From Candidatus Cryosericum sp. (GTDB taxonomy: Bacteria > Caldisericota > Caldisericia > Cryosericales > Cryosericaceae): a stretch of 64,000 nucleotides of DNA. The stretch spans positions 62,885 to 126,884 of the forward strand of contig JBNAWM010000001.1 in the NCBI GenBank assembly GCA_049699855.1. Direction: 5' to 3'. A model generated the notes under the pieces. That model was given only the letters and a program-made list of their open reading frames with translations, did no database searches and had not been told where the DNA came from. Made by a program: the position numbers and the translations under genes. The number at the start of each line of letters is the position of its first letter. Position 1 is the first letter of the stretch. Shown piece after piece: positions 17,865 through 61,306 of this stretch.

Positions 17865-17884
17865 CGAATTGCACATGATCAATA

Positions 17885-17946: not shown

Positions 17947-17952
17947 AATAAC

Positions 17953-21514: not shown

Positions 21515-21515
21515 T

Positions 21516-21592
<77 letters not shown>

Positions 21593-21635
21593 TTCCTTGC
21601 TGTCCCGGTGCATGAGCACACAGACAGCACTATGT

Positions 21636-21663
21636 ATACTACTCGAAAAGCACAAGAAGTCAA
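21636..21663 (-). promoter_or_regulatory. sigma70-type promoter for tRNA-fMet/tRNA-Thr/tuf
   Basis: TTGACT-N16-TAGTAT. Confidence 0.65.
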
Positions 21664-21821
21664 TCTCTATCGGAGCACCAGACGCTCCGCAGGAGGTCTT
21701 GAACGTGATCGCCACTCGAGTGATTTTCGCCTGATCAATGCAGGGAGTCCGACTCCCATCAAACACAGTGGCATGTTGAGGGATTCTTTCACTCGCATTG
21801 GCAGTGCTCCAGTCAAAACAA

Positions 21822-21896
21822 TGGAGCGGGAAACGGGATTCGAACCCGCGACAACCTGCTTGGAAGGCAGGGGCTCTACCACTGAGCTATTCCCGC
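21822..21896 (-). tRNA. tRNA-Gly (TCC)
   Basis: GCGGGAA..CTTCCAA..GTTCGAAT..TTCCCGCTCCA. Confidence 0.97.
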
Positions 21897-21904
21897 CAGT
21901 GCAA

Positions 21905-21989
21905 TGGTGGGCAGGGAGGGATTCGAACCCCCGTAGGCATTGCCAACAGATTTACAGTCTGCCGCCATTAACCACTCGGCCACCTACCC
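21905..21989 (-). tRNA. tRNA-Tyr (GTA)
   Basis: GGGTAGG..CTGTAAA, long variable arm, CCTGCCCACCA. Confidence 0.97.
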
Positions 21990-21993
21990 ACAC

Positions 21994-22069
21994 TGGAGCC
22001 GACGACCCGAATTGAACGGGTGACCAGTTGATTACAAATCAACCGCTCTACCAGCTGAGCTACGTCGGC
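21994..22069 (-). tRNA. tRNA-Thr (TGT)
   Basis: GCCGACG..TTTGTAA..GTTCAATT..CGTCGGCTCCA. Confidence 0.97.
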
Positions 22070-43782: not shown

Positions 43783-44991
43783 CTACTCCAGAATCTTGGT
43801 AACGACGCCGGCGCCAACCGTACGCCCACCCTCACGGATGGCGAAGCGGAGGCCTTCCTCCATGGCAATGTGCGTCATGAGGGTCACGGTCATCACAACA
43901 TTGTCACCAGGCATGGCCATTTCCTGACCTTCAGGAAGGGCGATGGAACCGGTCACATCGGTGGTACGGAAGTAGAACTGGGGCTTGTAGCCAGGGAAGA
44001 AGGGCTTGTGACGGCCACCTTCTGCCTGGGACAGGATGTAGACCTGTGCCTCGAACTTTGTGTGCGGAGTGATGGAACCAGGCTTGACAATGACCTGTCC
44101 ACGGCGCACGTCGTCATGCTCGACGCCACGGAGCAGGAGTCCAACGTTGTCGCCTGCCTCGCCATCGTCCAGCAGCTTGTGGAACATCTCGATGCCGGTG
44201 ACAACGGTCTTGCGGGTCTCTTCCGAGAGGCCGACGATCTCAACGTTGTCGCCCATCTTGACGATGCCACGCTCAATACGACCGGTAGCAACGGTGCCAC
44301 GGCCTGTGATGGTGAACACGTCTTCAACGGCAAGCAGGAAGGGCTTGTCGGTTGGACGGACGGGGGTCGGGATGTAGGAATCGACGGCATCCATGAGTTC
44401 CCAGATCTTGTCGGTCCACTCGTTCTTGCCACGGGAGCAGTCCCCTTCATACTCCATCGCCTTGAGGGCGGAACCACGGATGATGGGGGTTGCATCTCCA
44501 TCGAAGTCATTCTTCTTCAGGAGATCGCGGACTTCCATCTCGACAAGGTCGATCAGTTCGGGATCATCTACCTGGTCTACCTTGTTGAGGAAGACCACGA
44601 TCCTCGGGACATTGACCTGGTGCGCAAGCAGGAGGTGTTCACGCGTCTGAGGCATGGGGCCCTCGGATGCAGCCACAACGAGAATGGCCCCATCCATCTG
44701 GGCGGCACCGGTGATCATGTTCTTGATGTAATCTGCGTGCCCAGGGCAATCGATGTGCGCATAATGACGCTTCTCGGTTTCATACTCGGCATGGTGGGCA
44801 TTGATCGTGACGCCACGGGCCTTCTCTTCCGGTGCGTTGTCGATCTCGTCGTACCGCTTGACCGCCGTATGGCCCAAGGTCGCAAGACACTTCGTGATCG
44901 CAGCCGTCAAGGTCGTCTTGCCATGGTCGACGTGACCGATGGTTCCGATGTTGACGTGCGGCTTGTTACGCTCAAACTTCTCTTTCGCCAT
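43783..44991 (-). CDS. tuf: Elongation factor Tu (str-operon copy)
   Basis: Same protein as 20189-21397; follows fusA. Confidence 0.99.
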
Positions 44992-45008: not shown

Positions 45009-47099
45009 TTAAGCCTTGCTAGACAAGCCTTCGAACTTCGTGACAACCTGCTCTCGAACTTCTTCAGAAACCTTCTGATAGTGCGAAAACTCCATGGAAA
45101 ACGAACCGCGTCCCTGTGTCAGGGAACGCAGAATCGTCGTATAGCCAAACATGGCAGCAAGAGGCGCAGAAGACTCCACAACCTGCAAGTGGCCACGGTC
45201 CTGAATCTGCTGGATGGTACCTCTCCTTGCCGTGACACTTCCAATGACATCACCGATGTTCTCCTTCGGAACAACAATCTCGAGTTTCATGATCGGTTCA
45301 AGAAGAAATGGGGACGCTTTTGTGCAACCCTCGCGCAATGCCTTCGACGCAGCAATCTTGAATGCCATCTCCGAAGAGTCAACAGGGTGATAGGACCCAT
45401 CGGTCAGTGCAACAGATACGTCGACGAGCGGAAACCCAAGAATGGGGCCAGAGGTCGCTGCCTCGCGCACACCAGCCTCAATGGCCGAAATGAACTGCTT
45501 CGGCACCGATCCACCGACTGTCTTGTTCACGAATACGATTCCTGATCCCCGCTCACCTGGACCTATCCTCAGGACAACGTCGCCGTACTGACCGTGTCCA
45601 CCAGTCTGCTTAATATACTTCCCCTGCTGAACGACTTCACGCCCGATTGCCTCACGATAGGCGACCTGAGGCTCACCGACGCTCGCGTTGACGCCGTACT
45701 CCCGAAGAAGACGATCAATGATAATCTCCAGGTGGAGCTCGCCCATTCCTGAGATGATGGTCTCCGACGTTTCTTCGTCGGTCTTGATGCGGAACGTGGG
45801 GTCTTCAATCGCGAACTTCGCAAGCGAAGCGGCCAGTTTCTGCTGGTCAGCCTTCGTCTTGGGTTCAACCGCCACAGAGACTACCGGCTCAGGAAAGTGC
45901 ATCGTTTCCAGTTGAATCAGCCTGTTCTCGTCACACAACGTGGTGCCCGTAATAACATCCCTGGAACCAACAATGGCACCAAGATCACCAGCCCCAAGCT
46001 CTTCAATGTCCTCACGCTTGTTGGCATGCATCCGCAGGAGTCTGCTTACGCGCTGCTTATCCCCTGTATTCGCATTCACAACGTAGGAGCTGCTCTTCAT
46101 AACTCCCGAGTACACACGAATGTACGACAGGATCCCAACATACGGATCCGAGACAATCTTGAAAACAAGTGCAACCAGCGGCCCGTTGACATCGCTGGTC
46201 ACTTCGACTTTCTCGTCAGTTCCCGGATTCTTGCCAACGGCTGGTTTGACATCCAGCGGCGAGGGAAGATAGTCAACAATTCCGTCGAGCAGGGGCTGAA
46301 TGCCCTTGTTGCGGAAAGACGATCCTACAAAAACCGGTACGATTAGATTGGCAATGGTCGCTCGGCGAAGCGCAGGTTTGACGTGGTTCCATTCCATTGT
46401 TCCGGTGGCCACGTATTCCTCGAGGGCCTCATCATCCACCTCGGCCACAGCCTCGATCAAATGCTCTCGAGCCTCGGCAACCTCGGCTGCTTCCTGATCA
46501 TCGAGCTGAAGCGTCTCAAAGGTCTCGCCCGTCGGATCAGAGAAGAGATACTTTTTCCCTTCCATGACATCGAGCACACCCATGAAGCTGTCCTCTTTTC
46601 CAACCGGCAGCTGAACAATCGCCGGCCGCGCGCCAAGCTTCTCGCGAATCGCCTCAATCGTCTTGTCGAAGTCTGCACCCACTCGATCAAACTTGTTGAT
46701 GTAGACAATACGCGGTACATGATACTTGTCGGCTTGCCGCCACACCGTCTCAGATTGAGCCTGAACTCCCTCAACCCCAGACAGGATGATGACACCGCCA
46801 TCAAGCACTCTCAGAGCGCGTTCTACCTCTGCTGTGAAGTCCACGTGGCCGGGCGTATCAATAATGTTAATCTTGAAGCCCCTCCACGAAGCTGTGACAA
46901 CAGCAGATTGAATGGTAATACCGCGTTCGCGCTCCTGAGGCAGAAAATCGGTCGTCGTGTTGCCATCATCGACGTTTCCCAGCTTGTACGTCGACCCGGT
47001 GTAGTACAGAATCCGCTCCGAGGTCGTCGTCTTGCCGGCATCAATGTGAGCAATAATGCCGATATTCCGTATGTCGTTCAAATCCTTCTGATTAAGCAT
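45009..47099 (-). CDS. fusA: Elongation factor G (canonical)
   Basis: [24 protein letters not shown]; between rpsG and tuf. Confidence 0.99.
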
Positions 47100-47121
47100 G
47101 CAATACCACTAACTCCTAACT

Positions 47122-47592
47122 CTACCAGCGATAGTGAGAGTACGACTTGTTCGCCTCTGCCATGCGGTGGACATCTGACTTCTTCTTGAATGCAGCACCA
47201 GTCTCGGAAACTGCATCAATCATTTCGTATGCGATCTTCTCAGCCATCGACTTGCCAGCCCTCTTCTTGGCTCCATCGACAATCCACTCCATGCTGAGAT
47301 TGATTCCACGACGGGACTCAACTTCCACCGGAACCTGGAGTGTAGCTCCTCCTACCCTGCGGGGCTTCACCTCAACCAAAGGCCTGCACTTTTCAACAGC
47401 CTGCTGGAATACTTCGATCCCAGGCTTGGCACCCTTTTCATCAATCAGTTTGAGAGCGCCATACACGATGCCCTGGGCTTTCACTTTCTTGCCCTTCTTG
47501 AGGATCTTGTTGATGAAATGGTTCAGCAACTCACTGTTGTAAATCGGATCAGACTGAGCTGGCTTGCGAAACTGTCTAATCTTTCTAGGCAT
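47122..47592 (-). CDS. rpsG: 30S ribosomal protein S7
   Basis: RRVGGATLQVP, VHRMAEANK. Confidence 0.99.
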   Translation of the reverse strand: MPRKIRQFRKPAQSDPIYNSELLNHFINKILKKGKKVKAQGIVYGALKLIDEKGAKPGIEVFQQAVEKCRPLVEVKPRRVGGATLQVPVEVESRRGINLSMEWIVDGAKKRAGKSMAEKIAYEMIDAVSETGAAFKKKSDVHRMAEANKSYSHYRW

Positions 47593-47993
47593 TACTTGCC
47601 ACCTTTCTTTACAGCGGCGCCTTTCTTGGCTCGCTTAGCTCCATACTTCGACCGCGCTTTCATGCGATTGGCCACGCCTGCAGTGTCCAGTGTTCCACGG
47701 ATAATGTGATACCGCACGCCTGGCAGATCCTTGACTCTGCCACCGCGGATCAGCACCATCGAGTGCTCCTGGAGGTTATGGCCAATACCGCCAATATAGG
47801 CTGTGACTTCCATTCCATTGGTCAGGCGGACTCTCGCGATTTTGCGAAGCGCGGAGTTCGGCTTCTTCGGTGTTGCTGTCTTGACCTGGGTGCAGACCCC
47901 TCGTTTCTGTGGACTACCCTTGAGAGCCGGAGTCTTGGTCTTGAACTTCGGCTGCACGCGGGGAGACCGCACCAGCTGGTTAAATGTAGCCAT
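47592..47993 (-). CDS. rpsL: 30S ribosomal protein S12
   Basis: [23 protein letters not shown]; start at MATFNQ. Confidence 0.99.
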
Positions 47994-48030
47994 ACAGGTT
48001 CCTCCTAAGAACGTAAATACACATCTCCAT

Positions 48031-48058
48031 ATAATACGCATTCGGAGCCATGTGTCAA
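48031..48058 (-). promoter_or_regulatory. sigma70-type promoter of the str operon
   Basis: TTGACA-N16-TATTAT. Confidence 0.8.
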
Positions 48059-48140
48059 GCACCGGCTCCTTGACAAACGATCATCCGGGGCCAAAGGTTC
48101 CGTTTCCAATGCCTCTGGCCCGACTTCTCACTATACAGCT

Positions 48141-51100
48141 CTATCTCATTCCCAGTCGCTTTGGCGGCTCAGCCTCCAGTTGTGCATCTCGATTTGCGAA
48201 GATCAGTTCCGGTGAAGAGGTGCCGGCAGGGATGGACTTGCCGACGATCACCGCTTCCTTGAGCCCAGTCAAACGATCGATCTTTCCCTTGATAGCGGCG
48301 TCAGCCAATACTCGAGGAGTCTCCTGGAAGGAGGCCGCGGACAGGAAACTGTCTGTTTCCAGAGAGGACTTAGTGATACCCTGAAGCACGAGGTCAAACG
48401 ATGCCGGTTTGCCCCCCTGTGCACGCACCTTGCGATTCTGATGCAAGAGCTCGTGCTTGCTCACAATCTGGTCTGTGAAGAACGTCGTATCACCCGGGTC
48501 AATGACCTTCACCTTCTTGAGCATCTGGCGAATGATCATCTCAACGTGCTTCACGTTGATGTCAACACCCTGAGAGCGATAGACCTTCTGAACCTCCTGA
48601 ACCAGATACCGCGCCGTTTCCTCCACGCCCACCAGCTCAAGAAGGTTTTTCGGATCAATCGAGCCCTCGGTCAACTGCTCGCCTACCATGACATGGTCGC
48701 CGTCTTTGACACGGAACCTGGCATTGGCAGAAACCTTGAACTTGACTTCGATACCTGCACCGTCGGCGATGATGATCTGCTTCCGGTCCTCCTGGCCCTT
48801 TTCCTTCAACTCGGCCAATCTGAAGACTCCGTCGATGGGCGAAACCAGGGCCTGTCCCTTTGGCGTGCGTCCCTCGAAGATCTCCTCGACACGAGGCAGA
48901 CCGGTCGTAATATCGACGACAGCAATACCGCCGGTGTGGAACGTGCGGAGCGTTAGCTGGGTCCCTGGTTCACCGATGGATTGTGCTGCAATGACTCCGA
49001 CCGCCTCGCCAACCTGGACATCGCCACCGGTGGAGAGATCGCGCCCGTAACACATGGCGCAGACTCCATTTTCGCTCTGACACGTAATGGGGGAGCGCAA
49101 GCGGACGCTTGTAATACCAAACTGCTCAATGGCGACTGCTATCTCGTCCCGAATGAGACCATCTTTGGGCACCAGCACAATATCCTCGTCGACGGCAACC
49201 TGCACTGAGGCAATGCCGCCGCGCTTTGCTGCAGCAAGGACCTTGTCGGTCAGCGGTTCACCCTTCTTCCCGACAGTACGGGCGCCATCCGAGGAAACAA
49301 TATCTTCTGCAAGAGGCCGCTCCATGATGCGCTCCAGCGTTGTCCTTGACCAGCCCGGGTTCACGGGGATGGTGGAAGCGCGAAGGACAATATCGTCAGC
49401 TGCATAGCGGCCCGCGATCTGTTCCTTCAGGCCGACAATCACGGCTCCTCCGTCAACAACCGGCTGAACCATGAGACCACCAACGTACCGCTGGATCTTC
49501 AATGACTTGAGACCCAGACTCTCCAGCCTCTTTGCCTGTTCCCAGGAAATCTCCTCGCCCGGTTCGATGATTGTTTCGCCCGTCAGCGGATTGACGACCT
49601 TCTCGTCGGCGATCTTGCCCGCCAGTTCGTCCGAAAGCGGCGAAACAACAAGGTTTCCAATCTTGATCTCACGAGCCACGGAGTGCGTGCAGTCCTGCTC
49701 GCGTACCACCAGCTCATGCGCAACGTCGACAAGACGACGGGTCAGGTAGCCCGAGTCCGACGTCTTCAAGGCGGTGTCAGCCTGCCCCTTGCGCGTGCCG
49801 TGAGTGGAAAGGAAATACTCCAGCACGGAGAGCCCCTCACGTAGATTGGATTTGATAGGGAATTCGATGATCTTGCCCGATGGATCTGACATAAGCCCTC
49901 GGATGCCGGTCATCTGGACGATCTGCTTCTTGCTTCCGCGGGCTCCCGAATCGGCCATGATGCGCACCGAGTTCTCTTCGGTCAAATTGCGGAAGACGGC
50001 TTTCTCGATTTCTTCGCCCTTTTCCTGCCAAACCTTGACGACTTTCAGATACCGGTCGGTGTAGGACAGAAGACCCTCGTCATAGAAGTTGTTGATCTCA
50101 CGGACGGTCCGATCGGCATCGTCGAGGATGTGTTTCCGTTCGGGCGGCACTTCCATGTCTGACAGGCCGATCGACATGCCTGACTCGGTCGCATATTTGA
50201 ATCCAAGCGCTTTGATGTTGTCGAGCAGAACACTGGCCTTCGACACACCAAACTGGCGCGAGAAGTCCAGGATCATGGCTTCGATCTCCTTCTTGGGCAT
50301 GGTCTTGTTCACAAAGGGGAAGTCGGCGTACTTGGCCTCACCTTCAAAAATGCCTGACCGCAGCTCATCGTTGAAAACAACCCTTCCGGCGGTGGTCCGA
50401 ATCTTGGCCGTCCCAATCCGGACAAGGACAGGGTCGTGCACGCGCAGCTTGCCGGACTCAAAGAGATACAGCACGTCCCGCTCGCTGTAGACGGGGGCCG
50501 AGTTCCACTTCATCGCCTTCATCTTGTCTTTCACTTCATAGGTAAGGTAGTACGAGCCAAGCACCATGTCCTGGACTGGTCCTGCCATTGGATTGCCGCT
50601 TGCCGGAGAGAAGATGTTGTACGACGACAGCATGAGCAGGCGAGCTTCTGTCTGCGCGGCAAGGCTCAAGGGAAGATGTATGGCCATCTGGTCTCCGTCG
50701 AAGTCCGCATTGAAGGGCGTACAAACGAGGGGAGAAATCTGGATGGCCTTCTCGTCGATGAGCACCGGTTCGAACGCCTGAATAGAGAGGCGGTGCAGCG
50801 TCGGGGCACGGTTCAGCAACACAACATTGCCCTTCACGACTTTCTCCAGGATGTTCCACACTTCGGGGGTCGGTTTCTCGACGATGTCCTTGGCAACCTT
50901 CATGCTGCCAACAACGCCCTCCCGCATAAGCCGGTAGATGACATGGGGCTTGAACAGCTCCAGCGCCATCTCCTTGGGAACACCACACTGACTGATCTTG
51001 AGCTGCGGTCCGGAAACGATGACTGCACGCCCAGAATAGTCGACACGCTTGCCCAGCAGGTTCTGACGGAAGCGGCCTTCCTTGCCCTTGAGCTTGTCAC

Positions 51101-52046
51101 TCAGGGAGCGCAGGGGACGTCCGTTGGCATTAATGACGGGGTATTGCCGCTTGCTGTTGTCCAGGAGAGCATCCACCGCATCCTGGAGCATGCGCTTCTC
51201 ATTCTGCAGAAGGATCTCTGGAGCGTTCTCCTCAATCATCTTGCCGAGTCGGTTGTTGCGGTTGATAACCCGGCGGTACAGCTCATTCAGGTCATCCGAG
51301 GCAAACCGTCCACCTTCAAGCTGAACGAGCGGCCGAAGGTCCGGCGGAATGACCGGAATGCGCGTCATGATCATGTCTGTGGGCTTCCGGCTGTTGTTGA
51401 TGAGTGCCGTGACCACATCCAGTTCCTTGACAGCTTTGGCACGATCCTGACGGGACTTGCCCTTGATCCGGAGCAGAAGCGCATCACGCATTTTGTATAG
51501 ATCAACATCCTTCAGGAGATCCAGAAATGCCTCTGCGCCCTTCTTGGCAACGAACTTCTCGCCCTTGATCTTGCGATCACGATATTCCTCATCCGTCAGC
51601 AACTGCTTTCGTACCAGACCCTCAGCATCGCCTGGATCCAGGACCAGCCAGCTGCCAAACGAGATGACCCTTTCCACTGCCTTGCTGGGCATTTCGAGAA
51701 GCAGAGCAATGTAATTGACAGCGTTCCGAAAATACCAGATGTGAGCGACCGGGGCATGCAGTTCGATATGCCCCATCCGTTCACGGCGGACACTTGAATC
51801 CGCTACTTCGACATGGCACTTGTCACACACTTGCCCCTCGAAGCTTTTTCCCTTGAGTTTGCCGCAACGGCATTGATAGCTCTTGGTCGGACCGAAGATG
51901 ATCTCACAGAACAATCCATGAGGCTTTGGTTTGCCACTGCGGTAGTCGAGCGTTTCAGCTTCGGTAACTTCTCCATGTGACCAGCTCCGTATTTCCTCTG
52001 GCGATGCCAGATGGAGGGCTAGAGCTTCTATCTTATTGTTTCTCAA
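48141..52046 (-). CDS. rpoC: RNA polymerase beta' subunit
   Basis: RFRQNLLGKRVDYSGR, NADFDGDQM, SGYLTRRLVD, GEPGTQLT; TTG start after GGGAGG. Confidence 0.99.
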   Translation of the reverse strand: MRNNKIEALALHLASPEEIRSWSHGEVTEAETLDYRSGKPKPHGLFCEIIFGPTKSYQCRCGKLKGKSFEGQVCDKCHVEVADSSVRRERMGHIELHAPVAHIWYFRNAVNYIALLLEMPSKAVERVISFGSWLVLDPGDAEGLVRKQLLTDEEYRDRKIKGEKFVAKKGAEAFLDLLKDVDLYKMRDALLLRIKGKSRQDRAKAVKELDVVTALINNSRKPTDMIMTRIPVIPPDLRPLVQLEGGRFASDDLNELYRRVINRNNRLGKMIEENAPEILLQNEKRMLQDAVDALLDNSKRQYPVINANGRPLRSLSDKLKGKEGRFRQNLLGKRVDYSGRAVIVSGPQLKISQCGVPKEMALELFKPHVIYRLMREGVVGSMKVAKDIVEKPTPEVWNILEKVVKGNVVLLNRAPTLHRLSIQAFEPVLIDEKAIQISPLVCTPFNADFDGDQMAIHLPLSLAAQTEARLLMLSSYNIFSPASGNPMAGPVQDMVLGSYYLTYEVKDKMKAMKWNSAPVYSERDVLYLFESGKLRVHDPVLVRIGTAKIRTTAGRVVFNDELRSGIFEGEAKYADFPFVNKTMPKKEIEAMILDFSRQFGVSKASVLLDNIKALGFKYATESGMSIGLSDMEVPPERKHILDDADRTVREINNFYDEGLLSYTDRYLKVVKVWQEKGEEIEKAVFRNLTEENSVRIMADSGARGSKKQIVQMTGIRGLMSDPSGKIIEFPIKSNLREGLSVLEYFLSTHGTRKGQADTALKTSDSGYLTRRLVDVAHELVVREQDCTHSVAREIKIGNLVVSPLSDELAGKIADEKVVNPLTGETIIEPGEEISWEQAKRLESLGLKSLKIQRYVGGLMVQPVVDGGAVIVGLKEQIAGRYAADDIVLRASTIPVNPGWSRTTLERIMERPLAEDIVSSDGARTVGKKGEPLTDKVLAAAKRGGIASVQVAVDEDIVLVPKDGLIRDEIAVAIEQFGITSVRLRSPITCQSENGVCAMCYGRDLSTGGDVQVGEAVGVIAAQSIGEPGTQLTLRTFHTGGIAVVDITTGLPRVEEIFEGRTPKGQALVSPIDGVFRLAELKEKGQEDRKQIIIADGAGIEVKFKVSANARFRVKDGDHVMVGEQLTEGSIDPKNLLELVGVEETARYLVQEVQKVYRSQGVDINVKHVEMIIRQMLKKVKVIDPGDTTFFTDQIVSKHELLHQNRKVRAQGGKPASFDLVLQGITKSSLETDSFLSAASFQETPRVLADAAIKGKIDRLTGLKEAVIVGKSIPAGTSSPELIFANRDAQLEAEPPKRLGMR

Positions 52047-52061
52047 TCTTCCTCCCTTGGG

Positions 52062-54149
52062 CTACTCTTCTTCCTCAGCGACCATCGTAGCCTTGGCGTC
52101 GGCAATGATCTTCTCGGCGATTCGCTCTGGTACTTCCTCATAATGATTGACCTTCATGGAATATGAACCGGTTCCCTGGGTGATTGAGCCCAGATCGATC
52201 CCATAATTGAGCATCTCTGCCAGTGGAACGGAAGCTTTGATAATCTGCTTCCCATTGACGTTTTCCATGCCTGAAATCTTGCCGCGCTTGCTGGTCAGAT
52301 CTCCCATGACGTCGCCCATATACTTCTCATCAACAACGACCTCGAGGGCAACGATGGGCTCGAGAAGAACGGGGTTGCACTGCTCAAACCCTTTCTTGAA
52401 AGCAAGCGATCCTGCAAGTTTGAAAGCCATCTCGGATGAATCGACTGGATGATACGATCCGTCCACAACAGCAACCTTGATGTCCACGGCTGGATAACCA
52501 GCCAGCTGGCCCTTGGCCATCGTTTCGAGCATTCCCTTCTCAATAGCGGGGATGAACTGCTTCGGAATGGCTCCACCAAACACCTTGTTCTCAAAGACCC
52601 AGCCGCCGCCACGTTCATTCGGCTCCATCTCGATCCAGCAATGTCCAAACTGACCATGGCCTCCGGTCTGCTTCTTGTGTTTTCCTTCAACGCGTGCCTT
52701 TCCCTTAATTGTTTCACGGTAAGGTACCCGCGGCGTTTCAAGGTCAATGCCTACACCAAATTTCTTCTGAAGGCGCTCGACAATGACCTGGAGGTGCGCT
52801 TCTCCGAGGCCGCTCATGATGGTCTCATGAGTCTCTGCATTTTTCTCAATGATAACAGCCGGTTCTTCCTCTTTCAGACGATTGAGTGTCGAACTCAGCT
52901 TGTCATCGTCAGCCCTTGTTCTCGGCTTCAGAGAGCGCATGAGAAGTGGCTGAGGGAAAACGATGGGTGCAAGTTCAATGGGGTCCTCGCGACAGGTAAT
53001 CGTATCATTCGTTGCGCTCACGACCAGCTTGGAGATAACCACAATGTCACCAGCGATACCCTCTTCCGCCGGTTCCTGCTTCTTACCTACCATATGGAAG
53101 AGCCCTCCAATCTTCTCAGAGGCATCCTTCGTCCCATTGTAGATCTCATGTGAGATCTTGCCGCTGTAGATGCGAACAAATGACAATTTGCCAACGAACG
53201 GATCGGACGTCGTCTTGAAGATAAAAGCAGACGGACGGGCAGAGGGATCTGCCCGAATCTCCACTGCATCGCCAGTGCTCCTCCGTTTCGCCTGAACGGC
53301 TACTTCGGCAGGAGACGGTGCGTAGGAGGCAAGGAAATCCATAACGTAGTCGCAACCGACTCCCTTCAGGGCCGAGATGCCAAGAACAGGGAATACCTGG
53401 CGACTCTTGAAGGCTTTCACAAACACCATCGTAAGCTCGTCCTGACTCAGAGCCTCGCCACCAAGGTATTTCTCCATCACTGCATCGTCCGACTCCGCAA
53501 CAGCCTCTGTCAGAGCCAGGCGCGCCGCCTCATATTCCGAACGGATGCTCTCGGGAATGGCATCGGAAATGACCGCCTCGTCCTTGCCTGCTGGGTACGA
53601 ATAGAGCTTGCCAGTCAAGACGTTTACGAATGAGGAGAAGCCCGGGCCAGAAGCAATCGGGATTGTCAGGGCAGCGACCTTGAGGCCAAAAGCTGCCTGC
53701 AACTCCTCGACTCGCTGAACGAAATTCACGTTTTCCAAGTCAACCTTGTTCACCAACAGGGCGACGGGAATCCCCTGAGCCTCGCAAAGATTCCAGAACC
53801 GGGGAGTCTGAACTTCGACACCGGCCCCCGCGTTGATGGTAAGCAAAGCCGTGTCGGCAACCCGGATACCCTCCTGAACCTCTGTCATGAAATCAGCATA
53901 TCCAGGAGTGTCCAGCAGATTCAGCCGGGTCCCCTTGTAGTCAAACTCACACAGACCAATGCTGGTACTGATGTGGCGTTTCACTTCCTCGTCCAAGTAG
54001 TCTGAGACTGTTGTTCCGTCCTCGACACGGCCAACTCGCTGGCTTGCCCCTGCACGAAACAGCAGGCGCTCTGTGATCATGGTTTTGCCGGAGCTTCCTT
54101 GTCCAACAAGCGCAAAGTTTCTGATGTCACTCGGGCTGAATCTGCTCAC
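52062..54149 (-). CDS. fusA2: Elongation factor G paralog (EF-G2/EF-G-II type)
   Basis: Full five-domain EF-G length (695 aa) with G1 GQGSSGKT, G3 DTPGY, G4 [23 protein letters not shown]; GTG start after GGGGAGG. Confidence 0.93.
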   Translation of the reverse strand: MSRFSPSDIRNFALVGQGSSGKTMITERLLFRAGASQRVGRVEDGTTVSDYLDEEVKRHISTSIGLCEFDYKGTRLNLLDTPGYADFMTEVQEGIRVADTALLTINAGAGVEVQTPRFWNLCEAQGIPVALLVNKVDLENVNFVQRVEELQAAFGLKVAALTIPIASGPGFSSFVNVLTGKLYSYPAGKDEAVISDAIPESIRSEYEAARLALTEAVAESDDAVMEKYLGGEALSQDELTMVFVKAFKSRQVFPVLGISALKGVGCDYVMDFLASYAPSPAEVAVQAKRRSTGDAVEIRADPSARPSAFIFKTTSDPFVGKLSFVRIYSGKISHEIYNGTKDASEKIGGLFHMVGKKQEPAEEGIAGDIVVISKLVVSATNDTITCREDPIELAPIVFPQPLLMRSLKPRTRADDDKLSSTLNRLKEEEPAVIIEKNAETHETIMSGLGEAHLQVIVERLQKKFGVGIDLETPRVPYRETIKGKARVEGKHKKQTGGHGQFGHCWIEMEPNERGGGWVFENKVFGGAIPKQFIPAIEKGMLETMAKGQLAGYPAVDIKVAVVDGSYHPVDSSEMAFKLAGSLAFKKGFEQCNPVLLEPIVALEVVVDEKYMGDVMGDLTSKRGKISGMENVNGKQIIKASVPLAEMLNYGIDLGSITQGTGSYSMKVNHYEEVPERIAEKIIADAKATMVAEEEE

Positions 54150-54171
54150 CTGTTCCTCCCCTTAGAGAATG

Positions 54172-57100
54172 CTATTCGTTGTCTTCAAGCAGTAGCTTTG
54201 TACTCTTTGCATAAACTTCTCCGGCTTTCGGCAGGCTCTCGAGATCGAGTCCCAGCCCTCGAAGCTCCTTCACAAGAACATTGAAGGATTCAGGGAAGCC
54301 AGTTTCGAACAGGTTGTTTCCCTTTGTCAAGCGCTCATACGCAACGCGCCTTCCCTCAAGGTCATCTGACTTGATTGTCAGCATCTCCTGCAAGACAGTG
54401 GAAGCACCATAGGCTTCGAGAGCCCAGACCTCCATCTCTCCAAAACGCTGACCACCAAACTGAGCTTTACCGCCGATTGGCTGCTGAGTGATAAGCGTGT
54501 AGCGGCCAGTCGAACGAGCATGCATCTTGTCCTCGGCCAAGTGGATGAGCTTCAGGATATACGCTTCTCCAACAGTGACCTTGCTGTCAAACTCATTGCC
54601 ATAGACTCCGTCACGAACAATCTCTTTGCCGCTTTCGCTCAGGCCCGCCTTGACGAGAAGGGCTTTGATTTCCTCCTCGGTGGCTCCGTTGAACACAGGA
54701 GTGAGAGCTCGCACGTTCAACTTCCGGGCTGCGATACCCAGGCTGGCTTCGAGCAGCTGGCCAATATTCATACGAGACGGCACGCCCAGTGGACTCAGGA
54801 TGACATCCACCGGAGTTCCATCTTCAAGGAACGGCATATCCTCCTCTGGCAGGATACGGGTAATGACGCCCTTGTTTCCATGGCGGCCTGCAACCTTATC
54901 TCCAACGATGATTTTGCGTTTTTTGGCAACGTACACCTTGATGATGCGTTCAACGCCAACAGGGAGCGTATCGCTCGTGCTGTCTTTCGTGATCTCCTGC
55001 ACGTCGATGACAACTCCATCCTCTCCTGGTGGCACTTTATACGATGTATTCTTGTAGTCGCGGGCTTTGTCATGGAACAACGCAAAGTAGACTCGTACCT
55101 CTGGCGATTCCTCCTGCTCAGCCCTTGGAGTGATTTTTCCAACCAGGACATCCTCGGCCTTGACATGTGCCCCAATCTGAACAACGCCTCGATCGTCCAG
55201 GTGTCGTGCCAGCTCCTTGGAGACATTGGGGGGATCCCTCGTGATCTCCTCCTTGCCGAACTCGGTGGACCTGACCTCGATCTTGTGTTCCTTGATATGA
55301 ATGGACGAGAGACTGTCGTCACGCACAAGGCGCTCACTGACGATGACTCCGTCCTGATAGTTGTATCCGCGCCACGGAACGTACGCCACGAGGAGGTTCT
55401 TTCCCAAGGCAAGCTCTCCGTCCACGGAGGCATATCCATTGGCAAGCAGATCGCCTGCGTGTACCTCGTCCCCAATCGAAACAGCCGGGTGCTGGTTGAT
55501 ACATGTATCCTGATTGGTTCTCTTGAATTTCTGAAGTTCGAAGACACGAGCCTGAGGCACAGACACGTGCGTCACCCCGTTCTTTGCCATGAGAATCAGG
55601 TCTGCACGCGTCAACTTCCTTCCCACCGTCAGTTTCTTCGCCTTGGGTTTCCGAAGTTGAACATCCTCTGCCAGCGTCTGTCCCACCAGCGAACCATTGA
55701 CACGGAACAACTCATAGGCTGCAGTCTTCGCAGGGTCATACGTGAGAATGCTCGCATTCTTGTCTTGCATCAGCAGGTCACGGAGGCTCTCCTCCGAAAC
55801 AATACGACCCGCACTGGAACTCAGATCCTGAGTCGAGCTCACGCGCAGGATCCTGTGGCCGAGTACCTGCTGTCCAATTGGCGTCATAGACAGAATCTGA
55901 AGATCAGCCTCGACGACTTCGTCGCCTCTCTGGATCGGAAGAGATCGGATCTTCGCATTGTTGATCAGGCGGCCAAGCAATGTTTCAGTGATCTTCGTAC
56001 CGGCTTTGTGTACCTTGCTCTTGCCTTCCTGGACATCCTGTGCCAGAGACTGTCCGATCAGGTCCTCGTTCGTCTGAACATCGAACAGGTCCGTAAGCGA
56101 GTTCTGTACAATAGAACCAGCGGGAACGTATTGAAAAGACTCGACGCCCTCGTCGGCCAGAGCTTCAATCTGCTCATGTGAAATCTCGGATCCAATCAAT
56201 GCAAGGACTTCTTCCGGGACACCCTCGGGAGCAAACGAAATCGGAACCATTCGCGCTTCGCCAATGATGCCAGGTTCCTCCGCCTCGGCAGCAAGCATGA
56301 CGGGAATCACGTCGACAGCGACCGAGCCAGATTGAAGATCTTCGGCAGTCACCAAGGGCGATACTCTTATCTGTTCGGCATCAACGTAGGAGACAACTCC
56401 GTCAACATCACTCAGGACCAGGTCTCCGTTATCACGAACCACCCGTCCTTCCATGGTAGTTGAAACACGGGTCTGGTCTGGCCGCACAAGAGGCACTGCC
56501 TGTCGCTGCATGTTACAGCCCATGAGTGCGCGGTTTGCATCATCATGCTCGAGAAACGGAATCAGTGAGGCTGAGATTCCAAATATCTGCGAGGGCAGCA
56601 GATCGATGTAATCGACCTTGTTCGCGGGAACCTCTTTTGGAAGGATCTCTCCCCCCTCACTACGCTGTCTCGCAATGACGGTCTTCGAGGTGAGTCTGCC
56701 CTCATCATCGACGGCAGTGTTCGCCTGGGCAATCGAATAGTGTTCTTCCTCTTCTGCATCCATATAGACAACATCGCGCTCATCCTTGCGCCCATTGGAG
56801 ACCTTGGCATAGGGAGCGGTAATGAAACCATATTGATCAAGCGTTGCATACGAGCTGAGGCTGTTGATCAAACCTATGTTTCCACCCTCAGGCGTCTCGA
56901 TGGGACAAATGCGGCTGTAGTGTGAGGAGTGGATGTCGCGTACCTCTACCCCAGCACGCTTCCTGTTCAATCCACCTGGTCCAAGAGAACTGAGACGCCT
57001 CTTGTGCGCCAGACTCGAAAGAGGGTTGATTTGTTCCATGAATTGCGACAATTGGCTCTGCCCGAAGAAATTCCTGATCGACGAAATGATCGGTTTGGTG

Positions 57101-58359
57101 TTCAGGACATTCTGAAGATTCATCATCTGCTCCGAAGAGTAGATCGTGACCTTGTCACGCGTTGCTTTGGCTACCTTCAGCATGCTGTCCTGGATTTCCT
57201 CAGCCAGCAGTTCACCGACGCATCTGATACGGCGGTTCGCCAGACTGTCGATATCATCGAAACTGGCCTTGCGCTCGCGTATGTCGATCAAATGCCGGAT
57301 GATCGCTATGTAATCATCGGTGGTGAGGACTGACGATGACGTCCCTGTCCCGAACCGCTTGTTGATTTTGTAGCGCCCGATGGGCGTGTAGGTATTGTAC
57401 GCTTCATCGGTGAGCAGCGTCGAGAGGAGATTCTGGGCCGCCTCAATGGTGAGGCGCTCCTTCGGCTGCATCTCCTTGAAGATCTGCTTGATGGCATCTT
57501 CCTGGTTCGTCGTTTTGTCAACACTGAGCGTCTTGAGGATCCAGCGGTCTGGCTGACTGCTGCTGACCAGGAACAGGCTGATACCGTGGTTTTCAAGAAG
57601 GCTGAGGGCTTTGCCGTTCAGGACTGCTCCCTCCTTGATGATCTCCTTCCCTCTTGAATCGAGAAGCGGTTCAGCAGCTCGGTATTCAGTCTGTTCAATA
57701 GCCGACCGAAGCTGCTCGACCGGCATGCGCTCGGTTTTTTCGACGGTGAACAGGCGCTTGATCTCTTCGTTCGATTCAATGCCCAGTGCCTTCAGAACAA
57801 GGGTCACGGGGATCTTGTGAGCTTTCTTCCGCAAGCGGGTGTAGATCACGTCATCCTTGCCAGCCTCAATTTCCATCCAGTTGCCTCTGTCTGGAATGAG
57901 AGTGACCATGAACACCTGAGCGCCTGAAAGTTTGTCCTTGCCACCTTCAAAATAAACGCCGGGGGAACGGACAAGCTGTGAGACAATCACACGCTCCGCC
58001 CCATTGATGAGAAAGGTTCCATACGCAGTCATGAGAGGAATCTGGGTGACGATCAACGGCTGCTCGCGAATCTCACCGGTTTCCTTGTTGATCAGCCTGA
58101 AGTTGGCGCGAATCATGGCCTCGTAGCTCAGTCCGGCCTTGCGGCAACTCTCCATTGATCTCCCAGGTCGTTCCGTGTCGTGGCTCACATACTCGATCCG
58201 CAGCTTTGCGGTGTCGATGGGAAAAACTCTCGTAAAGATCTGAGCAAGACCTGGTCCCAGAAGCCAATCATAAGATGTCTTCTGGAGCTGGAGGAGGTCG
58301 GGCATCGCGTAACTTGATTTGATTTTGGTAAAGTCTATAATGTTCGCTGCCACGCGCAT
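54172..58359 (-). CDS. rpoB: RNA polymerase beta subunit with large lineage-specific insertion
   Basis: INGAERVIVSQL, CPIETPEGGNIG, GDKVAGRHGNKG, GGQRFGEMEVWAL. Confidence 0.99.
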   Translation of the reverse strand: MRVAANIIDFTKIKSSYAMPDLLQLQKTSYDWLLGPGLAQIFTRVFPIDTAKLRIEYVSHDTERPGRSMESCRKAGLSYEAMIRANFRLINKETGEIREQPLIVTQIPLMTAYGTFLINGAERVIVSQLVRSPGVYFEGGKDKLSGAQVFMVTLIPDRGNWMEIEAGKDDVIYTRLRKKAHKIPVTLVLKALGIESNEEIKRLFTVEKTERMPVEQLRSAIEQTEYRAAEPLLDSRGKEIIKEGAVLNGKALSLLENHGISLFLVSSSQPDRWILKTLSVDKTTNQEDAIKQIFKEMQPKERLTIEAAQNLLSTLLTDEAYNTYTPIGRYKINKRFGTGTSSSVLTTDDYIAIIRHLIDIRERKASFDDIDSLANRRIRCVGELLAEEIQDSMLKVAKATRDKVTIYSSEQMMNLQNVLNTKPIISSIRNFFGQSQLSQFMEQINPLSSLAHKRRLSSLGPGGLNRKRAGVEVRDIHSSHYSRICPIETPEGGNIGLINSLSSYATLDQYGFITAPYAKVSNGRKDERDVVYMDAEEEEHYSIAQANTAVDDEGRLTSKTVIARQRSEGGEILPKEVPANKVDYIDLLPSQIFGISASLIPFLEHDDANRALMGCNMQRQAVPLVRPDQTRVSTTMEGRVVRDNGDLVLSDVDGVVSYVDAEQIRVSPLVTAEDLQSGSVAVDVIPVMLAAEAEEPGIIGEARMVPISFAPEGVPEEVLALIGSEISHEQIEALADEGVESFQYVPAGSIVQNSLTDLFDVQTNEDLIGQSLAQDVQEGKSKVHKAGTKITETLLGRLINNAKIRSLPIQRGDEVVEADLQILSMTPIGQQVLGHRILRVSSTQDLSSSAGRIVSEESLRDLLMQDKNASILTYDPAKTAAYELFRVNGSLVGQTLAEDVQLRKPKAKKLTVGRKLTRADLILMAKNGVTHVSVPQARVFELQKFKRTNQDTCINQHPAVSIGDEVHAGDLLANGYASVDGELALGKNLLVAYVPWRGYNYQDGVIVSERLVRDDSLSSIHIKEHKIEVRSTEFGKEEITRDPPNVSKELARHLDDRGVVQIGAHVKAEDVLVGKITPRAEQEESPEVRVYFALFHDKARDYKNTSYKVPPGEDGVVIDVQEITKDSTSDTLPVGVERIIKVYVAKKRKIIVGDKVAGRHGNKGVITRILPEEDMPFLEDGTPVDVILSPLGVPSRMNIGQLLEASLGIAARKLNVRALTPVFNGATEEEIKALLVKAGLSESGKEIVRDGVYGNEFDSKVTVGEAYILKLIHLAEDKMHARSTGRYTLITQQPIGGKAQFGGQRFGEMEVWALEAYGASTVLQEMLTIKSDDLEGRRVAYERLTKGNNLFETGFPESFNVLVKELRGLGLDLESLPKAGEVYAKSTKLLLEDNE

Positions 58360-58382: not shown

Positions 58383-58425
58383 AAAAAAAGCGGTCAAATC
58401 AAAAGTCTACTCTCTTTTGATTGAC
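58383..58425 (-). terminator. Probable intrinsic terminator of the ntp-NUDIX-acyltransferase-GT2 transcript
   Basis: GTCAATCAAAAG-8nt-CTTTTGATTTGAC (12 bp, one bulge) then CGC and T7. Confidence 0.6.
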
Positions 58426-58431
58426 AGTCAA
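58404..58431 (-). promoter_or_regulatory. sigma70-type promoter of rpoB
   Basis: TTGACT-N16-TAGACT, overlapping the terminator hairpin. Confidence 0.62.
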
Positions 58432-58593: not shown

Positions 58594-59262
58594 CTACTGT
58601 CTGAAGATGCCATAACGCACGACAATTCCAAGAAATCGCAACGTGTCTGTGAGCGAGTTTACTTTGCTCTTCGCCTCCTTTCGATAGATGGTCCTGGTAG
58701 GCACCCAGCCTATTTTGTATCCCGCCCTGCCTGCCTTGAAGATAACCTCGGTTTCCAGATCATACTTGTCCGCTTTCAGCGACAGCGAACAAACCGCCGC
58801 CAAGCGATAATAGCGAAAGCCATTCTGACTGTCTCGAACATTCTGTCCCAGGAACATGCTTACCAGCACCGATGAGGCGTGATTGGCAAACCTCCTGATG
58901 AAAGGCATGGTTGAAATGTTCGACATCCTGTTCCCTATGACGATGTCATATCCCTCGGCCGCTGCCGCAATGAAAAGTGGAATCTCAGAAGCATCATGCT
59001 GGCCGTCAGCGTCAATGGTAATCGCGCCGTCGTACCCCTGTGCGAGCAGATAGGCGAACCCTGTCTTTAGAGCCGCTCCTTTTCCTCTGTTAGAGTCGTG
59101 CCGCAGAACCAGAGCACCTGCGTGAGCTGCAACGTCCACCGTGTCGTCAACAGACCCATCATCGACAACAACCACTGCTGTCACGAAAGGGCGCACTCTC
59201 TCGACGACAACCGCAATATTCACTGCCTCGTTGAACGCCGGGATCAGCGCTGCGATTCTCAT
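58594..59262 (-). CDS. Family 2 glycosyltransferase (DPM1/polyprenol-phosphate glycosyltransferase-like)
   Basis: IPAFNE, VVDDGSVD, NRGKGAAL, TIDADGQH, DSQNGFR, DLETE. Confidence 0.93.
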   Translation of the reverse strand: MRIAALIPAFNEAVNIAVVVERVRPFVTAVVVVDDGSVDDTVDVAAHAGALVLRHDSNRGKGAALKTGFAYLLAQGYDGAITIDADGQHDASEIPLFIAAAAEGYDIVIGNRMSNISTMPFIRRFANHASSVLVSMFLGQNVRDSQNGFRYYRLAAVCSLSLKADKYDLETEVIFKAGRAGYKIGWVPTRTIYRKEAKSKVNSLTDTLRFLGIVVRYGIFRQ

Positions 59263-60119
59263 GCGGCACTCCCCCAGAAATCAAAGAAATTGAGAAATTG
59301 TGTTGGATCTCGGGTTACCACCGATTCATACTGCTGCGCAAAGTCCTGGACGAAAGCAGTTATCCACTCTCTCTCGTTTGTGGCTTTTGGGCAAATACAG
59401 TGCCCGAACTCCAGAAGAAAACGTCCATCAGGCTGCCGTATGAGAAAGCCAGGGATGCCCACGAGTTGCCTGCGAAAAGCCAGAAGCGCCGCTCCACGCG
59501 GAAATCGGGCAATCCTCCCAAAGAATGCGACCGGCTCTCCCCCTGGCGAATACTCGCGGTCTGAGACGATGGCAGGGACCTCACCCTCGGGGAGCGACCG
59601 CAGCAGGTCGCGGAGACCGAGCCGAACATCATGGGTTGTCATGCCGAAACGAACCCGCAAAGCATCATAGAAATGCTGTACCACCCGGCTGTTCTGCGTG
59701 AGAGCAATGGCATGCGTCCGGTAGCCCCCCAGTCCGAGCACAGCCCCCGCCAGCTCCCAATGCCCGTAGTGTCCAGTCACGATGCAGAACGGTTTGCCCC
59801 CGGATCGTTCTTCCAGCATTTTGCGCATGTCGCCGAAGTTCGCAACCAATGACGCGATATCAGCGTCTGTTGCCGTGGGAATGCTGAAAAAATCGACAAG
59901 GTTCAGGCCAGCCTGCTGAAACGTACGCCACGAAAGCAGCAAGGACTCGAACCACTTCGCTTCCGGGCGCATGATCCTCACATTGGCCATGACTCCACGC
60001 CGCTGGTTGGCATTGAAGACAAAATACCCACATGCGATAAGCCTGGCGAGGGTTCTCTTCACCCATGACGGCAGGATACCGGCAACGCGAAAAGCAACAC
60101 CATACCAGAATGCCATCAT
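59259..60119 (-). CDS. LpxL/HtrB/PatA-family lysophospholipid acyltransferase
   Basis: TGHYGHWE motif, VSDRE, VAFFGRIARFPRGAALLA, C-terminal PTQFLNF (family ..P.QW..F pattern). Confidence 0.85.
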   Translation of the reverse strand: MMAFWYGVAFRVAGILPSWVKRTLARLIACGYFVFNANQRRGVMANVRIMRPEAKWFESLLLSWRTFQQAGLNLVDFFSIPTATDADIASLVANFGDMRKMLEERSGGKPFCIVTGHYGHWELAGAVLGLGGYRTHAIALTQNSRVVQHFYDALRVRFGMTTHDVRLGLRDLLRSLPEGEVPAIVSDREYSPGGEPVAFFGRIARFPRGAALLAFRRQLVGIPGFLIRQPDGRFLLEFGHCICPKATNEREWITAFVQDFAQQYESVVTRDPTQFLNFFDFWGSAA

Positions 60120-60123
60120 CGGG

Positions 60124-60663
60124 TTACATCCTTCCCGAACTTTCAAACATGGTATACCAGAACAGCCCTATAAGGGTCTTCGCATCAACAATGCGACCGT
60201 TGCGGCATTGTTCGATCGCATCAGCCACTGGTACAAGGATGGGCTGGAGAAACTCGTCAGCATCCATCTGGGTGGGTCCCGGGTGCAGGCCCGTCGCCAG
60301 GAACAGGGTCAAACGCTCATTGACAAAGCCCGGACTCGGCCAAAAATCCACACACTTCTTCCATGAGTCAGCAACATATCCGGTTTCCTCGCGCAGTTCG
60401 CGCTGCGCCGCATGGAGAAAGTGCTCGTGGAGGCCCCGCCTTCCGGCTGGAATCTCAAGAAGAATGGCCTCAGGAGCAGGCCTATACTGGCGAACCAGCA
60501 CAACCTGTCCATCGATGAGCGCAACCACGCACACTGCTCCTCCCGGATAGGAGACGACGTCTCTATGAACGAAGCGGTCGTCCGGCAATTGGACGACCTT
60601 GTCAAGGACCTCTATAAACTGCCCTGCATAGACCGCACGACGCGACAGGACAATCTCCGACAT
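60124..60663 (-). CDS. NUDIX hydrolase, ADP-ribose pyrophosphatase-like
   Basis: LVRQYRP, EIPAG..AAQRELREETGY Nudix box, SPGFVNE, DEFL, DAKT. Confidence 0.93.
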   Translation of the reverse strand: MSEIVLSRRAVYAGQFIEVLDKVVQLPDDRFVHRDVVSYPGGAVCVVALIDGQVVLVRQYRPAPEAILLEIPAGRRGLHEHFLHAAQRELREETGYVADSWKKCVDFWPSPGFVNERLTLFLATGLHPGPTQMDADEFLQPILVPVADAIEQCRNGRIVDAKTLIGLFWYTMFESSGRM

Positions 60664-60677
60664 ACGTCGACGCGCAC

Positions 60678-61298
60678 TCAATGGGACCGGATCATCTCCT
60701 TGATCTTCAACAATCTCGTTGTGGTCGCCCGCTCATTTTCATCCAGTTTCGATCTGATGAATCGGATCGTCTCTTCAAGATTGGGGATCATGACATATTC
60801 CAAGGCATTGACTCTGCGCCTGGTCCGCTCTATCTCGTCGGCCATGAGGCGAATACTCGTTTCAATCTCTGCCAGCTTCATGATCGACGGCAGAACATCG
60901 TAAAGCTTAAGGAGCGATGCCTCGACGCCAGCACCTTCCAATCCAGAAAACGATGGAGACTCGAAATCGGATATCTTGAACCTCAGCACAGGCAAAGCCA
61001 CGTTCATGACATTCTTCGTGCCAGCGTCGATGTCGAGCTTGGTCGATACAGTCCTCGAAAGCAAGTCTACAACTACGGCAGGATAGGTGGCCGTTTGACC
61101 CCTGAACGCTGCAAGCGCCTGCGGCAAGTCGTGGTCGACCCGTACGCGATAGTCACTGTACTCACCGGCAAGCTTGATGAACGTTTTCATCAAACCTTCC
61201 AGCTTGTCCTTGAGCAGCTTGTGTCCACGCTGTGCAAGCACGTACCGCTTCTGCAGCCGCAGAAGCTCCATCCTTGTCGGGTTGATCTTCAAGATCAT
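60678..61298 (-). CDS. ntpD: V/A-type ATP synthase subunit D
   Basis: NPTRMELL, RGHKLLKDK, TRRRVNALEY. Confidence 0.97.
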   Translation of the reverse strand: MILKINPTRMELLRLQKRYVLAQRGHKLLKDKLEGLMKTFIKLAGEYSDYRVRVDHDLPQALAAFRGQTATYPAVVVDLLSRTVSTKLDIDAGTKNVMNVALPVLRFKISDFESPSFSGLEGAGVEASLLKLYDVLPSIMKLAEIETSIRLMADEIERTRRRVNALEYVMIPNLEETIRFIRSKLDENERATTTRLLKIKEMIRSH

Positions 61299-61306
61299 GG
61301 TTCAGC

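Follow-up and report, generated by a model that had tools for sequence, protein, structure and literature searches.

The window considered here, a stretch of 64,000 nucleotides from contig JBNAWM010000001.1 of a Candidatus Cryosericum genome (assembly GCA_049699855.1), encodes on its minus strand a paralog of elongation factor G (EF-G) placed between rpoB and rpoC, the genes for the beta and beta' subunits of RNA polymerase. The source genome is 1.63 Mb in size and 98% complete, and the closest proteins, at 79-97% identity, are labelled Candidatus Cryosericum. Read along the minus strand, rpoB (54172-58359, 1395 amino acids; TIGR02013, 1387 bits) is followed after 22 nucleotides (54150-54171) by the 695-residue paralog (52062-54149; five EF-G Pfam domains) and then, after 15 nucleotides (52047-52061), by rpoC (48141-52046, 1301 amino acids; TIGR02386, 1498 bits). 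The sequence of the spacers reveals AAGGGGAGGAAC / GGGGAGG as the Shine-Dalgarno sequence before the GTG start of the paralog and AAGGGAGGAAGA / GGGAGG before the TTG start of rpoC, and each gene of the set is provided with a GGAGG ribosome-binding site. The sole further EF-G gene of the genome, a canonical fusA (EFG I) with the motif DTPGH (45009-47099, minus strand), lies about 5 kb downstream in the str operon. Gene order, spacing, strong ribosome-binding sites and the distance to fusA had been claimed in a prediction made from the window alone, and coordinates and profile matches bear them out; the tight packing from which that prediction deduced a single transcript is likewise real as a layout.

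The Pfam domains GTP_EFTU, EF-G_D2, EFG_III, EFG_IV and EFG_C are all present in the paralog above their gathering scores, in the five-domain architecture of EF-G (a G domain with G' insert, followed by domains II, III, IV and V), and the protein matches solved EF-G structures over its full length (E = 3e-164). By phmmer score the nearest relatives of known structure are canonical EF-Gs (551 bits for that of S. aureus), with lower scores for the EF-G2 of B. thetaiotaomicron (451 bits) and the EF-G-2 of T. thermophilus (1WDT, 446 bits). An AlphaFold2 model of the paralog (mean predicted local distance difference test, pLDDT, 90.2; predicted template modelling score, pTM, 0.83) gives template modelling (TM) scores of 0.94 to E. 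coli EF-G on the ribosome (7n2v), 0.88 to the ribosome-bound EF-G2 of M. smegmatis (9k0z), 0.84 to the ribosome-bound EF-G2 of B. thetaiotaomicron (8dmf) and 0.79 to T. thermophilus EF-G-2 (1wdt).

The paralog is not a canonical EF-G, as it scores 649 bits (648.9) with TIGR00484, under the cut-off of 659 (659.4), departs from the canonical motifs (GQGSSGKT, RHIST, DTPGY) and lies outside the str operon; the neighbouring fusA has the score (950 bits), the motifs and the str operon site expected of one. With the EF-G2 equivalog model NF009377 (cut-off 890) the paralog reaches 637 bits and the canonical fusA 509, and with the Bacteroides EF-G2 model NF058620 (cut-off 1000) they reach 574 and 492, respectively. 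By these NCBIfam scores, and in comparison with the canonical copy, the paralog therefore stands closer to both EF-G2 models and less close to EF-G, while lying below the cut-off of all three; Actinomycetota relatives, with 710-734 bits to NF009377, likewise remain under 890. The best NCBIfam model for the paralog, NF009381 (871 bits), was discarded as a discriminator: canonical EF-G also exceeds its cut-off, and each of 14 control genomes contains a match to it, in 10 cases one that passes the cut-off.

The protein most probably belongs to the EFG II subfamily (PMC3150367), also named 'EFGII' by Atkinson 2015 (PMC4342817), of which it would be a member of the Clostridia/Chloroflexi-like type. 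EFG II proteins have been described as carrying a G1 of the form GhxxxGKT and a relaxed G2 in which a Ser/Thr is kept at the fourth position, with RxxSI in Clostridia and r/kxxSI in sub-subgroups of Chloroflexi (PMC3150367). The same account gives G3 DxPG, G4 NKxD and G5 SAx as conserved and notes coexistence with a str-operon EFG I (PMC3150367). All of this fits the paralog, whose G3 to G5 read DTPG, NKVD and SAL, except for the P-loop His. In a maximum-likelihood tree of paralogs and canonical copies, built without any named EFG II reference, the paralog is set apart from the canonical copies by a fully supported branch (100%).

The G-domain motifs quoted in the original prediction, as well as the intact domain IV, are exact by translation. 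G1, or P-loop, is GQGSSGKT (54081-54104, minus strand, as are all features of the gene), with a Gly16 typical of EFG II and a Gln17 encoded at 54099-54101; switch I/G2 is RHIST in place of RGITI (53964-53978), which fits the RxxSI pattern of EFG II; G3 is DTPGY (53898-53912), with Tyr84 standing for the catalytic His by translation and alignment; and G4 is an intact NKVD (53739-53750). Domain IV (52377-52733; PF03764, 149 bits) keeps its two tip loops, the columns of which are invariant in the alignments. The loss of the catalytic His, to which the prediction had drawn attention, is not special to this paralog, and on this point its interpretation has to be corrected. The residue after DxPG is Y, F, L or A in 43 of 43 paralogs of the phylum and Y or F, with one T, in 90 database relatives; His is also absent from all 77 motif instances among 80 further loci from GTDB, which span Bacillota, Chloroflexota, Actinomycetota, Bacteroidota, Armatimonadota and others. 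The subfamily members examined thus carry Y, F, L, A, S or T at this site and none carries His, while 8 of 8 canonical EF-Gs of these genomes read DTPGH. Both the missing catalytic His and the relaxed switch I are traits of the whole EFG II-type subfamily; elsewhere in the class the G2 reads RKFSI, RQISI or RHISL.

Two substitutions, His17Gln and Arg129Val, are specific to Cryosericum. The G1 of this group is GQG[GS]SGKT, in which Gly16 is kept and the 'h' of the subfamily pattern is Gln; the other families of the class have [GSA]HxxxGKT, and His17 is kept in all other aligned paralogs and in the canonical copies. Val129 (53763-53765, by alignment) replaces the conserved Arg of the PR that precedes NKxD, an Arg kept in all other EFG II relatives aligned and in canonical EF-G. 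A few further changes are also fixed in Cryosericum, and all of these fall on a long stem branch (0.70 substitutions per site). Judged by alignment, Gln17 and Val129 suggest a further loss of GTPase-activation elements in this group.

Occurrence of the paralog was evaluated in 61 genomes of the phylum, 52 of which belong to the class Caldisericia and fall into five families (f1 to f5); a sixth lineage, f6, represents another class by kinship. The paralog is present in 52 of 52 class genomes, and in every one of the 39 whose flanks were checked it lies between rpoB and rpoC (8 genomes of f1, 17 of f2, 6 of f3, 6 of f4 and 2 of f5), including a complete, single-contig genome of 1.56 Mb in f2. 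In f4 and f5 the rpsL-rpsG-fusA genes no longer follow rpoC, yet the paralog is still found between rpoB and rpoC. Across the class the distance from the rpoB stop to the EFG II start ranges from -29 to +26 nucleotides (20-22 in 7 of 7 Cryosericum loci), with overlap of the two genes in f2, f3, f5 and two f4 genomes; from the EFG II stop to the rpoC start it ranges from 9 to 78 nucleotides, and a Shine-Dalgarno sequence precedes every start at these junctions. The layout is real, as had been predicted, and far from being confined to the one Cryosericum genome it characterises the class as a whole.

An apparent open frame of 1987 amino acids in two genomes of one family was considered as an EFGII-RpoC fusion and rejected, as the DNA holds a TAG stop between the genes. 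In this pair, from a single genus (genomes G058 and G052), EFG II and rpoC are in frame and parted by that single TAG (7739-7741 of locus L034) and 36 nucleotides; read-through of the stop codon would give an EFGII-beta' fusion, and under table 11 there is none.

Outside the class the picture is different. In the sister lineage f6, rpoB lies about 100 nucleotides from rpoC and the paralog occurs elsewhere, beside a gene for an iron-dependent repressor and feoB. In the f6 genome G002, the gene directly downstream of EFG II encodes a DtxR-type repressor fused to a FeoA domain (6051-6722 of locus L045), followed by feoB. Four contexts from outside the phylum (Thermoanaerobacterium, a Gelria-like metagenome-assembled genome (MAG), Sporomusa and a Dehalococcoidales MAG) have unrelated, loosely spaced neighbours and no RNA polymerase genes. 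The synteny search called for by the original prediction was carried out on 80 of at least 592 matching GTDB loci; rpoB and rpoC flank the gene in two of these, both Caldisericia MAGs (one copy 94% identical to that of f2, the other 77% identical to that of f5), and in 0 of the other 78 loci sampled, so that the layout is now recorded from the 39 class genomes and these two MAGs. The expectation that genes of the EF-G2 type are usually scattered and conditionally expressed agrees with the four outside contexts, the 78 other loci and what has been published on Bacteroides fusA2 (PMC10294740).

All embedded copies fall into a single clade (SH-aLRT, the Shimodaira-Hasegawa-like approximate likelihood ratio test, 96), which is sister to the free-standing copies of f6 (SH-aLRT 95) and nested among His-less paralogs of Bacillota and Chloroflexota. 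The EF-G phylogeny that the prediction had asked for thus separates the paralog from the canonical copies and unites the embedded ones, in a tree that holds no named EFG II reference. Because the embedded copies are one clade, the simplest history would be a single ancient relocation into the rpoB-rpoC junction in the class ancestor, followed by vertical descent. Before the move the gene would have been free-standing, and the move itself would postdate the divergence of the sister lineage, in which rpoB is still beside rpoC.

That the layout could be a product of assembly or binning, or a recent horizontal insertion confined to one MAG, was also considered. Logan contigs from other studies (sludge and other metagenomes) are collinear with the window over 51500-54700 at about 95% identity, with no gaps or joints; one spanning contig has 12,033 nucleotides at a depth of 249 and another 18,453 nucleotides. 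Since these independent contigs cross both junctions, and since the layout is common to 39 related genomes, the single-contig genome of 1.56 Mb among them, the artefact reading is excluded, and with it the concern that the arrangement might be unique to this assembly and lack read support. A recent horizontal origin is contradicted by the native GC content and codon use of the paralog, which resemble those of rpoB and rpoC; with hand-set coordinates its codon adaptation index (0.716) falls between those of rpoB (0.698) and rpoC (0.739), in a genome whose codon bias is weak.

Within Cryosericum the ratio of nonsynonymous to synonymous substitution rates (dN/dS) is 0.04-0.07 for the whole paralog gene, a sign of strong purifying selection. 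The G domain alone gives 0.056-0.088 in unsaturated pairs, indicating that, although diverged, it is still constrained. Its retention in every sampled genome, genomes of only 1.1-2.3 Mb, suggests an important role of EFG II in the class. No residues or indels were found in the alignment that separate embedded from free-standing EFG II copies, and the ratio of EFG II to EF-G distances is 1.3-1.8 within the class as against 1.34 in the single f6 pair, without a rate shift. Nothing at this level points to neofunctionalisation on account of the move, and the absence of a residue, indel or rate change with relocation argues against a newly evolved function linked to RNA polymerase. The likeliest outcome is that relocation altered the regulation of the gene and not the protein.

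As to that regulation, no terminator-like sites were seen in the rpoB-EFGII and EFGII-rpoC junctions, and a scan of the minus strand from the rpoB start to the rpoC end for TTGACA-N16-TATAAT with up to two mismatches returned no site, in keeping with the predicted lack of a promoter or terminator between the genes. No Rfam family matched in the rpoB-rpoC region. A candidate operon promoter, TTGACT-16-TAGACT (58404-58431, minus strand; 9 of 12 consensus matches), is located about 45 nucleotides upstream of rpoB. The short gaps, the Shine-Dalgarno sequence of each gene and the absence of a visible internal promoter or terminator suggest that a single transcript, initiated at the rpoB promoter, most likely carries the paralog together with rpoB and rpoC. 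In several families the overlapping or closely spaced starts suggest translational coupling with these two genes as well.

Downstream, the 147-nucleotide gap between rpoC and rpsL (47994-48140) contains a near-consensus putative promoter of the str operon, TTGACA-16-TATTAT (48031-48058, minus strand, by consensus scan); the rpoB-EFGII-rpoC transcription unit would thus begin at rpoB and probably end before this promoter. A 10-bp hairpin at about 48090-48125 was examined as a terminator after rpoC and dismissed, its fold z-score of only -1.6 not being significant. Beyond the gap lie rpsL and rpsG (47122-47993, minus strand; profile matches, start re-read), which with fusA make up part of the str operon (rpsL-rpsG-fusA, 45009-47993), and then tuf (43783-44991, minus strand; profile match). 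The listed start of the rpsL open reading frame, 48062, is an over-extension, the real start being the ATG at 47993 behind AGGAGG. Over the whole window, 11 sites match TTGACA-N16-TATAAT with up to two mismatches, as against 1.85 expected, an excess that fits housekeeping promoters with a 16-bp spacer.

Immediately upstream of rpoB (58594-63992) the neighbours are unrelated, consisting of a module of a family 2 glycosyltransferase (GT2), an acyltransferase and a Nudix hydrolase, and of the vacuolar-type ATPase (V-ATPase) subunit genes D, B and A. The L10 leader, and hence rplJL, is at 17827-17959, 40 kb from rpoB, so that rplL and rpoB do not adjoin here as they usually do. The contig has two tuf-like G-domain matches, at about 20978-21361 (minus strand) and at 43783-44991, and hence a second tuf copy; a tRNA gene cluster (21442-22069) adjoins the former. 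In RpoB itself, a stretch of about 290 residues (approximately 643-935, window coordinates about 55555-56433) has no tblastn counterpart in f5 and f6, where the matches are split into residues 7-642 and 936-1388, and the alignment is unbroken in f2 to f4. This stretch looks like a lineage-specific insertion of the beta subunit, and its distribution differs from that of the EFG II insertion.

Taken together, the reading that we prefer, at a probability of roughly 0.65, is that the paralog acts as a GTPase-poor translocase co-expressed with RNA polymerase after its relocation, with no new function. It would be made from the rpoB promoter whenever RNA polymerase is made, unlike characterised relatives, which respond to starvation or stress. 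As G1, G4 and G5 are kept, it is expected to bind guanine nucleotides, and the preserved tip of domain IV and ribosome-facing elements lead one to expect binding to the ribosomal A site. It probably hydrolyses GTP poorly, and could serve as a translocase or a ribosome-bound factor operating on little or no hydrolysis of GTP, alongside canonical EF-G in small-genome, energy-limited anaerobes. This is the most likely function by analogy with the EF-G2 proteins of Bacteroides and Mycobacterium.

Several observations weigh against this reading. The paralog is only 34-37% identical to the characterised EF-G2 proteins and misses the cut-offs of both curated EF-G2 models (637 vs 890; 574 vs 1000). 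The characterised EFG II proteins disagree on activity, so that the activity of the clade is not readable from sequence and the biochemical side of the proposal is only moderately secure. On the side of expression, weak promoter-like matches (9 of 12) occur inside the paralog at 54105-54076 and 52877-52849 and are possible internal promoters, and among the RNA runs searched for the paralog gene no run matched.

Another possibility, considerably less probable than a co-expressed translocase, is that the position lacks functional meaning: a single insertion may have persisted in an essential, hard-to-rearrange operon, in which excision of the gene or its re-insertion elsewhere would require a new promoter and risk disturbing rpoC expression. 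The single origin and the unchanged protein are what such an accident would leave, and small gene insertions in the rpoBC-str cluster are known in other lineages (PMC8046335). It is less easily reconciled with the survival of the layout across five families while the rplL-rpoB and rpoC-rpsL junctions broke, or with the retention of the gene in 52 of 52 class genomes under strong purifying selection. An accident of this kind is compatible with the activity preferred for the protein. Slightly less probable again is a role as a ribosome-binding factor that does not translocate and instead protects or idles ribosomes, as in hibernation or stress, here constitutively expressed. The EF-G2 of M. smegmatis, which has the same His-to-Tyr change, lacks ribosome-dependent GTPase and is described as stress-specific (bioRxiv 10.64898/2026.05.25.727771), and the model resembles its ribosome-bound form (TM 0.88); in Cryosericum, moreover, not only the catalytic His but also the P-loop His and Arg129 are lost. 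The loops at the tip of domain IV, which drive translocation, are, however, invariant; the B. thetaiotaomicron EF-G2, described as enabling GTP-independent translation, does translocate; and a growth-linked operon is a poor place for an idling factor.

It is improbable that EFG II, present in polymerase-like amounts, serves as a partner of RNA polymerase or coupling factor that acts on the trailing ribosome or contacts the polymerase. Gene order is the sole support for such a role: the position between beta and beta' has been kept throughout five families, despite the loss of the rplJL and str neighbours in some of them, and the genes are tightly packed or overlapping. Structures of E. coli TTC-B coupling complexes with bound EF-G have been solved (e.g. 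8y5r), but the embedded EFG II has no class-specific residue, insertion or extension, and its relocation brought no rate shift. The more specific picture of a fixed-ratio companion, at about one copy per polymerase, that would move the lead ribosome behind each transcribing polymerase slowly and without GTP, in step with the polymerase, or dock directly on the expressome is similarly improbable. If true, the polymerase operon would itself encode a factor dedicated to coupling transcription and translation.

The arrangement matters for more than one reason. Few bacterial gene pairs are as well conserved as rpoB-rpoC, and the role of EFG II, a widespread paralog, is disputed: in Bacteroides it has been given as a translocase that does without GTP, in mycobacteria as a stress factor and in Thermus as an active GTPase. 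Caldisericia offer a natural case in which EFG II looks constitutive and probably important, as opposed to conditional elsewhere. Since Caldisericum exile is cultivated, it can be tested whether growing cells need EFG II, whether it translocates without hydrolysing GTP and whether its amount follows that of RNA polymerase. Should a link to RNA polymerase lie behind the position, the case would be relevant to transcription-translation coupling; should it not, it would be a clean example of regulatory rewiring through relocation into a core operon. New in this analysis are the ancestral state seen in the sister lineage, the sample of GTDB loci, the tests of residues and rates upon relocation and the Gln17 and Val129 of Cryosericum.

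Among known systems, the paralog conforms to the EFG II subfamily (PMC3150367) in its five domains, its Gly-first G1, its relaxed G2 of the form RxxS[I/T] and its retained DxPG, NKxD and SAx, as well as in the high conservation of domains IV and V, the coexistence with a str-operon EFG I and a rate of evolution here 1.3-1.8 times that of EFG I. It differs in that throughout the class it occupies one and the same site, between rpoB and rpoC, while in the description of the subfamily genome context characterised EFG I (str operon) only and none was given for EFG II (PMC3150367). The Cryosericum protein departs further by its Gln17, which takes the place of a P-loop His that is invariant in the others, and by its Val129 in place of Arg. 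The prototype of EFG II, the T. thermophilus EF-G-2 (1WDT/2DY1), for which GTP hydrolysis and support of poly(Phe) synthesis have been reported (PMC3150367), is alike in structure (TM 0.79) at 36% identity, but the NF009377 equivalog score is not reached by the Cryosericum paralog (637 vs 890). The M. smegmatis EF-G2 (9K0Z; TM 0.88, 37% identity) shares the His-to-Tyr change, a diverged P-loop and switch I and, as a ribosome-binding protein, the expected target, and differs in its degenerate G4 and G5, which are intact here; it has been described as stress-specific and devoid of ribosome-dependent GTPase, translocation and recycling activity (bioRxiv 10.64898/2026.05.25.727771).

The B. thetaiotaomicron EF-G2 (fusA2, BT2167; 8DMF/7UVP) likewise coexists with a canonical EF-G and is similar in fold (TM 0.84) at 34% identity, but its gene is free-standing, whereas the one studied here is embedded in rpoBC. 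The protein is described as enabling GTP-independent translation, reportedly in Han et al. 2023 in EMBO J, and as translocating without GTP hydrolysis. Its gene is dispensable, and carbon limitation induces it strongly by way of BT4338 (PMC10294740).

No description was found in the literature of a gene between rpoB and rpoC in Caldisericota, of EF-G in genomes of this phylum or of an EFG II whose genomic surroundings are conserved. The nearest parallel to the relocation itself is provided by insertions into the rpoBC-str cluster (PMC8046335), in which, as here, a non-mobile gene entered the most conserved operon cluster of bacteria and was then inherited vertically. The described cases are tusDCB between rpoBC and str, and nrdHEF between rplL and rsmC, upstream of rpoB (PMC8046335); none lies between rpoB and rpoC and none is a translation factor. 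The type of protein is known, and it is its fixed position between rpoB and rpoC that is unusual.

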